A stretch of DNA of 7,441 bases, taken from positions 1 through 7,441 of the IMG/VR virus record IMGVR_UViG_2534681674_000027, one strand, 5' to 3'. Under the pieces are notes generated by a model. It was not told the origin of the DNA, did no database searches, and was given only the letters and a program-made list of their open reading frames with translations. This document shows, piece after piece, positions 4,035 to 7,000 of the stretch (the first letter of the stretch is position 1; every line of letters starts with the position of its first letter). A program made the translations under genes and the position numbers. This stretch comes from a virus (lineage: Duplodnaviria; Heunggongvirae; Uroviricota; Caudoviricetes).

Positions 4035-7000
4035 TCAGCTGATACTGATACCTGCTGTGGATTTTTTCATCACCACAACCAGCAGATCGCTGATACTTGC
4101 TGTGGGATACCAGTTATTTACCAGCCATGCTGACACCGAAAACTCCAGCGTCATGTGACCGTGACCGGCAGGCATATCAATAACGCCACTGTAAATCAGC
4201 GTATTATCCAGCGCGGTACGGTTATAAATTTCAGCACCGTTTTTCCGCACTATCAGACGGCATGAGGAGTAAATATCAGTATGCTCTCTCTCATGTTTAG
4301 CGCCGCTGAATGCCACCGCCGGAATAACAATTTGCCGGTCAAACGGCTGATCGTCATAAACCCTGACGGTAATGGTCCCTGATGGCCACCGCTCCGGTGC
4401 ACGGGAATCCCGGGGGAAAGCTTTGCCCACAGTTTTAACGAGATCGCCTTCAATCTGGTTCGCGGACAGTTTTCCCAGAACCCGACAGTTCTCGTTAATC
4501 GTGACGTTGTTGAGCGTCCCGGAATTCGCATTCACGTTACCGCTGATATCAGCATTTCTTGCGGTCAGCCTGCCCTCCGGCGTCAGGGAAAACGTCGGGG
4601 GATTGCCGGACGAGGTGATACTCACCGCAAACAGCCGCTTCAGGAACACATCGTTCATGAACAACTGATTCCCCTGCGCCACAAATAACGGCGTGGTGTT
4701 GCCGTCCTCCGGGTTAATCATCGCAATACGGTCAGCCAGCAGCAGTATGTTGCTCAGGGGCTGGCCATCAGTATCCTCAATCCCCGCTCCAATACCGGCA
4801 ACATAGGGTATGCCATTTTTGTTTTCTGTACCTTCAGCATGTAAAGTGCAGCAAGGTCATCATTTGTGTCCTTCTGCACGCGCTGTATCTGCTGTATGGT
4901 GGCGCTCTGGTCCTCCAGCGTTTTACTGACCGTCTGTGTGATTTCATTGCGGGTTTCGGTGATGGAGGTCTTCATCTCCGCCATCTCATCCGCAAGCTGG
5001 CTGTTGTCTATCAGCTCCCACAGCCCCTGAGCCAGATGCAGTTTTCCTATTTTTTCCCGAAACAGCCCCAGATACCCTTCTGCATCATTGCTGGCCCGGC
5101 CACTGGCTTCCACAAAAGCAGATTTCCCCACCAGGTTGACGCTGCGCACGTAAAACCAGAAATCCTTCCCGGGCTTAATGTGCGGGCCGGATACACTCCA
5201 CTGACTGCCGGTCCCCAGATAACGGGCAGAGGTTTCCACCTGAGATGTGTCTGCGATTTTTGTCTCCGAAAACCAGAACTCAAACTGTACCGTCGGGTCA
5301 TACACCGCAAGACGCGGGACCGCTGTTATCTGAAAATAGCCCGGTGTCAGCTCAATCGTGGCGGGTACCGCAGGTGCATTAATCCTGAACGTGGTGGTGG
5401 CCGGTTCCCCCTGCTGGCCATAACTGTTAATCGCCCTGACCGTCAGGGTGTATTCCCCCGGCGGCAGACCGCTGAAACGGTGCTCTGTATCCGCGGTGAT
5501 GGCGGTGGTCACCAGACGGCTGTCCTCACCGCTTCCACTGGTCAGGCGCAGACTGAAGCGCACGCCCTTCACCACCCGCGGCGTGTCCCATTTCGCCTGC
5601 GCCAGATACTGGCCGTCAGCTGCGCTCACCTCCACCGTCAAGTGCTGCACTGCCGGAGGGATGACGCTGTTCAGGGTGCCTGACTGCGGCTCAAAGCGGG
5701 CACCGTTATCCACGATGGCTTCTTTTTCCGGTACGTGCTGCACCGCCGTGATGGCAAAGGTGCCGTCCGTGTTTTCCCGGACGGAGACACAGCGGAACAG
5801 GCGACGGCGCAGTGACGGCAGGGATAGTCCCCATACACCGTATGTCTCCACACCATCAGGCAGGGTGCTGACCTGTACCCGGTCCGGCGCGGGGTGTGCG
5901 GTGATGTCCACACTCACCGGCTTACCGCTGCCGTTAATCAGGTTCACCGTGGCGGCACCGGTCTCCGGCAGTGTCACCTCACGGTCCAGCGTCAGGGTGC
6001 GGCTGGCGGCATCGATGGACAGGACACGTCCGCCGGTCATGGTCCCGGCATAGTCGTTATCACAGATTTCAATAATGTCACCGGGTGTGTGACGCAGCCC
6101 CTGTGACCCGAGCGTGAAATTCACCGTCTGCGTTTCCAGCAGTCCGGTCTTTATCACCCACAGCCCGGCACGGTGGGCCTGACCGCGACTGGTGCAGCCG
6201 AACGCATCCATCTTCAGCAGGTTGCGCCCGTAGCGCAGTATGGCTTCCGGGTCTTCCACCAGTTCCGTGGAGGTCTGCCAGCCGTTCTGCGGGTCGGTGT
6301 AATTCACCTCCACCGCCGTGTGGCGGTCCTTCAGGGCGCTGAAACTGTAGCGGAATCCCACACCTTCATTGTCAGCCACCACATCACTGTTTGTGTAGGG
6401 CCACACCACATCTGACGGACGGTCCTGCACAAACGTCAGCGTCTGGCCGTTCCATACCGGCATACAGCGCATCGCCGAGCAGAAATCACTGAGAACGTCC
6501 CACGCCTTACGCTGTTGTGACAGGTACGCATTAAAGGTCATCCGCGGCTCTGTGCCCCCGAAACCATCCGGGACCGTCTGGTCGCAGTACTGCCCGATGG
6601 CATACAGCGCCCACTTGTCCACATCCGCCGCCCCCAGACGTTTTCCCATGCCGTAGCGCGGGTGAGTCAGCATGTCCCACAGGCACCAGGCCGGGTTGTT
6701 GCTGTATGCCGGTTTCAGGCTGCCGTCCCAGATGCCGCTGTACGTGCGTTTTTCCGGGTCATAGTTTGACGGTACCTGAATGATGCGACCGCGGATATGG
6801 TAGTTCACCGTCATCTGCTGACCGCCAAACTGCTCCGCATCCACCTGCAGCCCCACAATCGCCGTGTTCGGGTAGCACTGTTTCACATCGATGATTTCGG
6901 TGTATGACGACCAGAGCGTCTTATTCTGCAGCTGGTCCGAGGTGCTGTCCGCCGTCTCCCGGACCATCCGGATGTTAAAGGGCCGCTCAGGCAGATTATC

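Follow-up and report, generated by a model that had tools for sequence, protein, structure and literature searches.

The tail gene J of a lambdoid prophage, as written in one draft assembly, is read in two frames that meet at a run of five adenines, and the question raised by this locus is whether the prophage has lost its gpJ or the assembly has lost a base. The stretch analysed here (the window, 7,441 nt) is the terminal 7.4 kb of a draft contig, AEZJ02000023.1 of assembly GCA_000194215.2, and spans positions 3-7443 of L078. Reading of the window sequence placed the A5 run at 4816-4820 on the minus strand (T5 on the plus strand), where the minus-strand text is ...ctgaaggtacagaaaac aaaaa tggcataccc..., the context string of the frameshift site being CAGAAAACAAAAATGGCA, and the minus-strand codons across the run are CTG AAG GTA CAG AAA ACA AAA ATG GCA TAC. 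The upstream frame, followed from the window edge at 7441, encodes 874 J residues ending ...LKVQKTK and then 21 off-frame codons with a stop at 4754-4756 (5'-partial J, 4754-7441, minus strand). The continuation of J lies in the -1 frame, equivalent to an offset of +2, and comprises 260 codons with a stop at 4035-4037 (4035-4817, minus strand). The 5' end of J is missing too, because the window stands at the contig end, 2 nt short of which it stops.

The window was compared by tblastn with the intact 1157-aa J of the closest complete genome (L001), which matched it in two separate frames, at 98.2% over residues 23-910 and at 99.2% over residues 895-1157. At the A-run itself, the two closest complete genomes have A6 and the window A5, with no other difference, which makes 4816-4820 the one-base deletion site that shifts the J frame, and one inserted A rejoins the two frames to give a 1157-aa lambda-type gpJ. 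A gpJ is expected to be a single uninterrupted frame of ~1130-1160 codons; in the window two frames meet at the A5 run instead. The initial annotation had placed a one-base -1 frameshift of J at this run and had held that an A6 would restore a full-length gpJ-like protein; sequence reading and the two-frame tblastn result agree on the former, and the 1157-aa frame obtained with one added A bears out the latter. The frameshift is a deterministic feature of the sequence, to which a chance statistic does not apply.

Pfam analysis of the upstream J fragment revealed PF24801, PF13550, PF24421 and PF24489 (hub, FNIII-A, Phage-tail_3 and two Ig_J domains), and that of the downstream fragment PF09327 and PF12421 (the remaining Phage_Tail_Tip fibre and the Ig_GpJ_C receptor-binding domain), all above the curated cut-offs; the intact homologue shows the same series as the two fragments combined. 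The two frames part at residue 897 of 1157, early in the Pfam tail-tip fibre domain, which spans residues 871-998 of the intact homologue. As written, J is consequently without its whole C-terminal receptor-binding domain, as had been noted before, and also without most of the central tail-fibre domain. Structure matches for the intact homologue include lambda gpJ itself (8iyk_J, E = 0, 1710 bits) and the C-terminal fragments 8xcj_Z (2.7e-139) and 9wca_J (3e-161). The repaired protein thus resembles lambda gpJ (PDB 8IYK, 8XCJ, 8XCK) in possessing FNIII-A_GpJ, the Phage-tail_3 hub, two Ig_J domains, the Phage_Tail_Tip fibre and Ig_GpJ_C, and as in lambda, J is followed by lom and then by a side tail-fibre gene. 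Unlike lambda gpJ, the window J is split within the fibre region and truncated 5' by the contig end, and its C-terminal domain is a variant allele. The C-terminal domain of lambda gpJ contacts the receptor LamB and sits beneath the beta-prism central fibre (PMC11101478); since the window carries a variant of this domain, the receptor of its J need not be LamB.

Downstream of J, all on the minus strand, lie lom (3368-3967), encoding a 199-aa Ail/Lom outer-membrane protein 100% identical to that of a relative, a two-gene side tail fibre, of which the N-terminal gene occupies 2092-3303 and the intact C-terminal domain gene (89 aa) 1821-2090, and nleC (406-1392), an intact type III effector cargo gene of 328 aa with 100% amino acid identity. 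With this gene order, the window forms the right-hand terminus of a lambdoid prophage, which in relatives adjoins ymdF and rutG at the rut locus. NleC is a T3SS zinc-metalloprotease effector, and its gene is cargo at the prophage end; beside it, at 1-360 on the plus strand, stands part of an antA/antB antirepressor gene, for which relatives have a pseudogene annotation. Prophages found at this chromosomal site in relatives range from intact to heavily deleted. The closest relative has J, lom and the tail fibre all intact. The counterpart prophage of strain 2013C-4974 at the same rut-locus site (L002, NZ_CP027587, 2997-6108) is heavily degraded: its J is 5'-truncated and stands directly beside the lysis genes, an IS66-family element lies a few kb upstream, and the sequence carries two one-base deletions of its own (G4 to G3 and C5 to C4). 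In attaching-effacing and Shiga-toxin E. coli, lambdoid prophages are often truly defective, and defective ones with effector cargo are commonplace. With its tail module, lom, tail fibre and nleC beside the rut locus, the window resembles the defective EHEC/EPEC lambdoid prophages with T3SS cargo. Unlike the 2013C-4974 prophage, it is without IS insertions or such deletions, and its supposed defects are one-base indels private to one draft assembly.

A -1 shift inside a phage tail gene cluster also recalls the tail assembly chaperones G and GT of lambda, and the A5 run might in principle be a functional site, at which tRNA-Lys slips by -1 on A_AAA_A during translation, or a phase-variable on/off tract. 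If tRNA-Lys in the P site slipped from one AAA onto the AAA that overlaps it, the product would have the same K-N junction as the A6 protein, and A5 recurs across independent assemblies. However, an X_XXY_YYZ heptamer is absent, as the zero frame reads ACA AAA ATG and an A-site ATG cannot re-pair in the -1 frame; the 131 nt downstream fold with a minimum free energy of -34 kcal/mol, indistinguishable from the mean of shuffled sequences (-33.96, z = -0.01); and relatives carry a plain in-frame A6, so that the requirement for a frameshift is not conserved. The lambda G/GT shift uses the slippery heptamer GGGAAAG, which is conserved across phages, whereas the J site has neither heptamer, stimulatory structure nor conservation, and programmed -1 frameshifting was rejected on these grounds. 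Tracts of five to six A are well below the length at which appreciable transcriptional slippage or phase variation is known. No match to an A7 allele over the full length was found among the complete E. coli genomes, A6 is nearly invariant and A5 occurs only beside other indels, and phase variation was likewise rejected. Taken together, a functional role of the run in either form is highly improbable.

The length of the run was also compared in related sequences. The pattern used on IMG/VR allowed A5 or A5 plus one more base, which in practice was A6, and gave 80 matches on 73 contigs; A6 was present in 77 of these matches and A5 in three. The site occurred in 612 of 5,426 complete E. coli genomes, at 1,100 places, with A6 at ~1,090 of them and the exact A5 in only three records. 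The GTDB species representatives, which do not include the source genome, contributed a single match, an A6 in Escherichia albertii. Relatives otherwise identical over 441 nt differ from the window only in having A6 in place of A5, and by exact ORF look-up the A5 allele with this J C-terminus was found in no assembly besides GCA_000194215.2. The near-universal A6 in related prophages favours the alternative that the initial annotation had itself named, namely that the true run is A6, and speaks against truncation as a trait of the prophage.

The few other carriers of A5 were inspected individually. One of the three IMG/VR A5 contigs is the published RM8352 genome, and in all three A5-bearing complete genomes (RM8352, 16-9255 and 99-3311) other frameshifted genes lie beside or within J. 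In RM8352, three neighbouring tail genes carry frameshift annotations, the A5 being the sole frameshift inside J. Alignment revealed ~20 one-base deletions in the J of 16-9255 (L082, NZ_CP022407), which is annotated as more than 10 CDS, and ~20 in that of 99-3311 (L083, NZ_CP101310), in which the tail assembly, J and lom genes are frameshifted; we take the J deletions of these two genomes to be indel noise left in repeated prophage DNA. Of the other two A5 contigs, L064 carries five more private one-base indels and L065 two private 4-nt deletions. J (3,474 nt) has no homopolymer longer than A6 and only three runs of that length, of which this is one. The unbiased IMG/VR set shows single one-base losses about as often at other G5, A5 and A6 runs of the gene, which indicates that the A-run is not a special hotspot. 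It is very unlikely that the A6 run is a real, recurrent slippage hotspot that inactivates J of cargo-carrying prophages in several lineages, with the allele spread between co-resident prophages by gene conversion and traces of full-length J perhaps still made through a low-level tRNA-Lys slip.

The 228-aa ORF 3' of the shift (4035-4721) and the extended Lom ORF of 212 aa described below were looked up exactly across 153 billion recorded gene positions. The former matched only in GCA_000194215.2, on three contigs and always at the contig end; a fourth place listed for it is a contig cut inside J that holds no copy of this ORF. All three J copies of the assembly (L077, L078 and L079) carry A5, L077 and L078 start at the same base, and the three contigs end inside J, suggesting that the assembler was unable to resolve a repeat of at least three copies. 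Comparison of the copies revealed a stretch of 1,660 nt (3981-5640) that is identical in all of them and reaches ~820 nt to either side of the A-run, so reads shorter than ~0.8 kb over the run would not be assignable to one copy. Because the copies are identical over these 1,660 nt, the three A5 calls are not independent and probably represent one consensus decision written three times. We therefore rejected the three A5 copies as separate support for a real mutation.

The A-run is not the only site at which the window departs from its relatives. It is 99.5% and 99.0% identical to the two closest complete genomes, and within 2.6 kb it contains five private one-base indels (4821, 3980, ~2569, ~2563 and 2214) and only ~3 private substitutions. 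The indel at 3980 (minus strand), an additional A lying 13 nt ahead of the lom start codon, creates a spurious 212-aa Lom ORF recorded only from GCA_000194215.2. Three private one-base deletions (net -3) fall in the tail-fibre N-terminal gene, two of them ~6 nt apart at ~2562-2570 (GAATCCCCACCGT to GATCCCCACGT) and one at ~2212-2214, and as written the gene stops at 2496, after 269 of 404 codons. Neither the two sister copies nor any complete E. coli genome searched has these deletions, and the tail-fibre region has no gapless match among the complete E. coli genomes. In the J of the sister copy L079 (AEZJ02000004.1), at 534-538, two one-base deletions lie 4 nt apart (GATAAAGACCGG to GATAAGACGG), and its tail-fibre gene carries an extra G at 4296; close-paired one-base deletions thus occur twice, in different copies. 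Beside the window, 3 kb of unique chromosome (ymdF-rutF) showed 0 differences from NZ_AP042682, the closest genome, which indicates that the indels are confined to repeated prophage DNA. The excess of indels, the paired deletions and the clean unique DNA fit consensus errors better than natural divergence.

Private substitutions in the 3' part of the tail-fibre gene were also considered as a sign of error and were rejected, since most of them are a real allele of the prophage L085. The missing T at 1819 is allelic too (L085), and the three in-gene deletions remain private. This 3' part of the gene (1790-2760) is closer to the L085 allele, which lies beside nleL in 2013C-4974, than to that of the syntenic prophage, and the pattern indicates mosaic exchange between the tail-fibre genes of co-resident prophages.

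The main competitor of a consensus error is a genuine pseudogene, in which a real one-base slippage deletion in A6 has inactivated J in a decaying lambdoid prophage kept for nleC. The truncated J would then be without central fibre and receptor-binding domain, any particle formed would not adsorb, and gene conversion may have carried the allele from one J copy of the genome to the others. The frameshift stands in the deposited sequence, the prophage also has a broken tail-fibre gene, the counterpart in 2013C-4974 is heavily degraded, A5 recurs in several J backgrounds, and the unique DNA of GCA_000194215.2 is error-free, all of which would agree with decay. Yet the ratio of indels to substitutions and the paired deletions resemble consensus errors, the three A5 calls cannot be counted separately, the allele with this C-terminus is unique to GCA_000194215.2, every other A5 carrier has further indels nearby, and the closest relative has J, lom and tail fibre intact. 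A search for the lesion in an independent sequence of the same lineage returned no second assembly with the 228-aa and 212-aa ORFs, which is an absence of support rather than a disproof. On balance we consider a pseudogene unlikely, though a good deal less so than recoding or a mutational hotspot.

The evidence is best explained by a homopolymer under-call, a consensus error in the draft assembly, with a true sequence that is probably A6 and an intact gpJ; we put the probability of this reading at about 0.7. That the cause is a sequencing or consensus error and not a mutation is inferred from the context of the run. The lambdoid tail region is present in at least three near-identical copies, with contigs breaking inside J; the copy of origin of a read over the A-run would have been ambiguous, and a single faulty consensus call would appear three times; the same repeated region would hold further one-base indel errors, among them those that break the tail-fibre gene. 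Two features of the site agree with such an artefact: the indel lies in a homopolymer and is absent from near-identical relatives, and other private one-base indels accompany it in repeated contig-end DNA next to clean unique DNA. The case also resembles known homopolymer indel errors of draft and long-read assemblies, being a one-base loss in one of the longest runs of the gene, in multi-copy contig-end DNA, and RefSeq complete genomes lose the same A amid ~20 other losses in J. It is unlike typical homopolymer errors in that A6 is only moderately error-prone. Counting against an error are the accuracy of GCA_000194215.2 in unique DNA, the frequency of true defects among lambdoid prophages of such E. 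coli, the length of A6, which is short for a majority under-call, and the A5 of RM8352, which could reflect a real, recurrent slippage mutation.

The statement of the initial annotation that J is truncated, as a property of the prophage, is not upheld by a three-copy contig-end block, private indels and an allele unique to one assembly, and on the comparisons made here its own alternative, in which A6 is true and the assembly wrong, has become the more likely one. If the A5 is an error, J of this prophage is intact and a "truncated J" is no ground for calling the prophage defective; if it is real, the locus adds one more pseudogene to a defective effector-carrying prophage, a well-known situation. 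Both outcomes, consensus error and pseudogene, are ordinary and carry little biological weight. Multi-copy lambdoid tail genes often carry one-base frameshifts, in "complete" E. coli assemblies as well as in drafts, and a read check is therefore due before these are interpreted. The practical lesson for these prophages is one of data quality.
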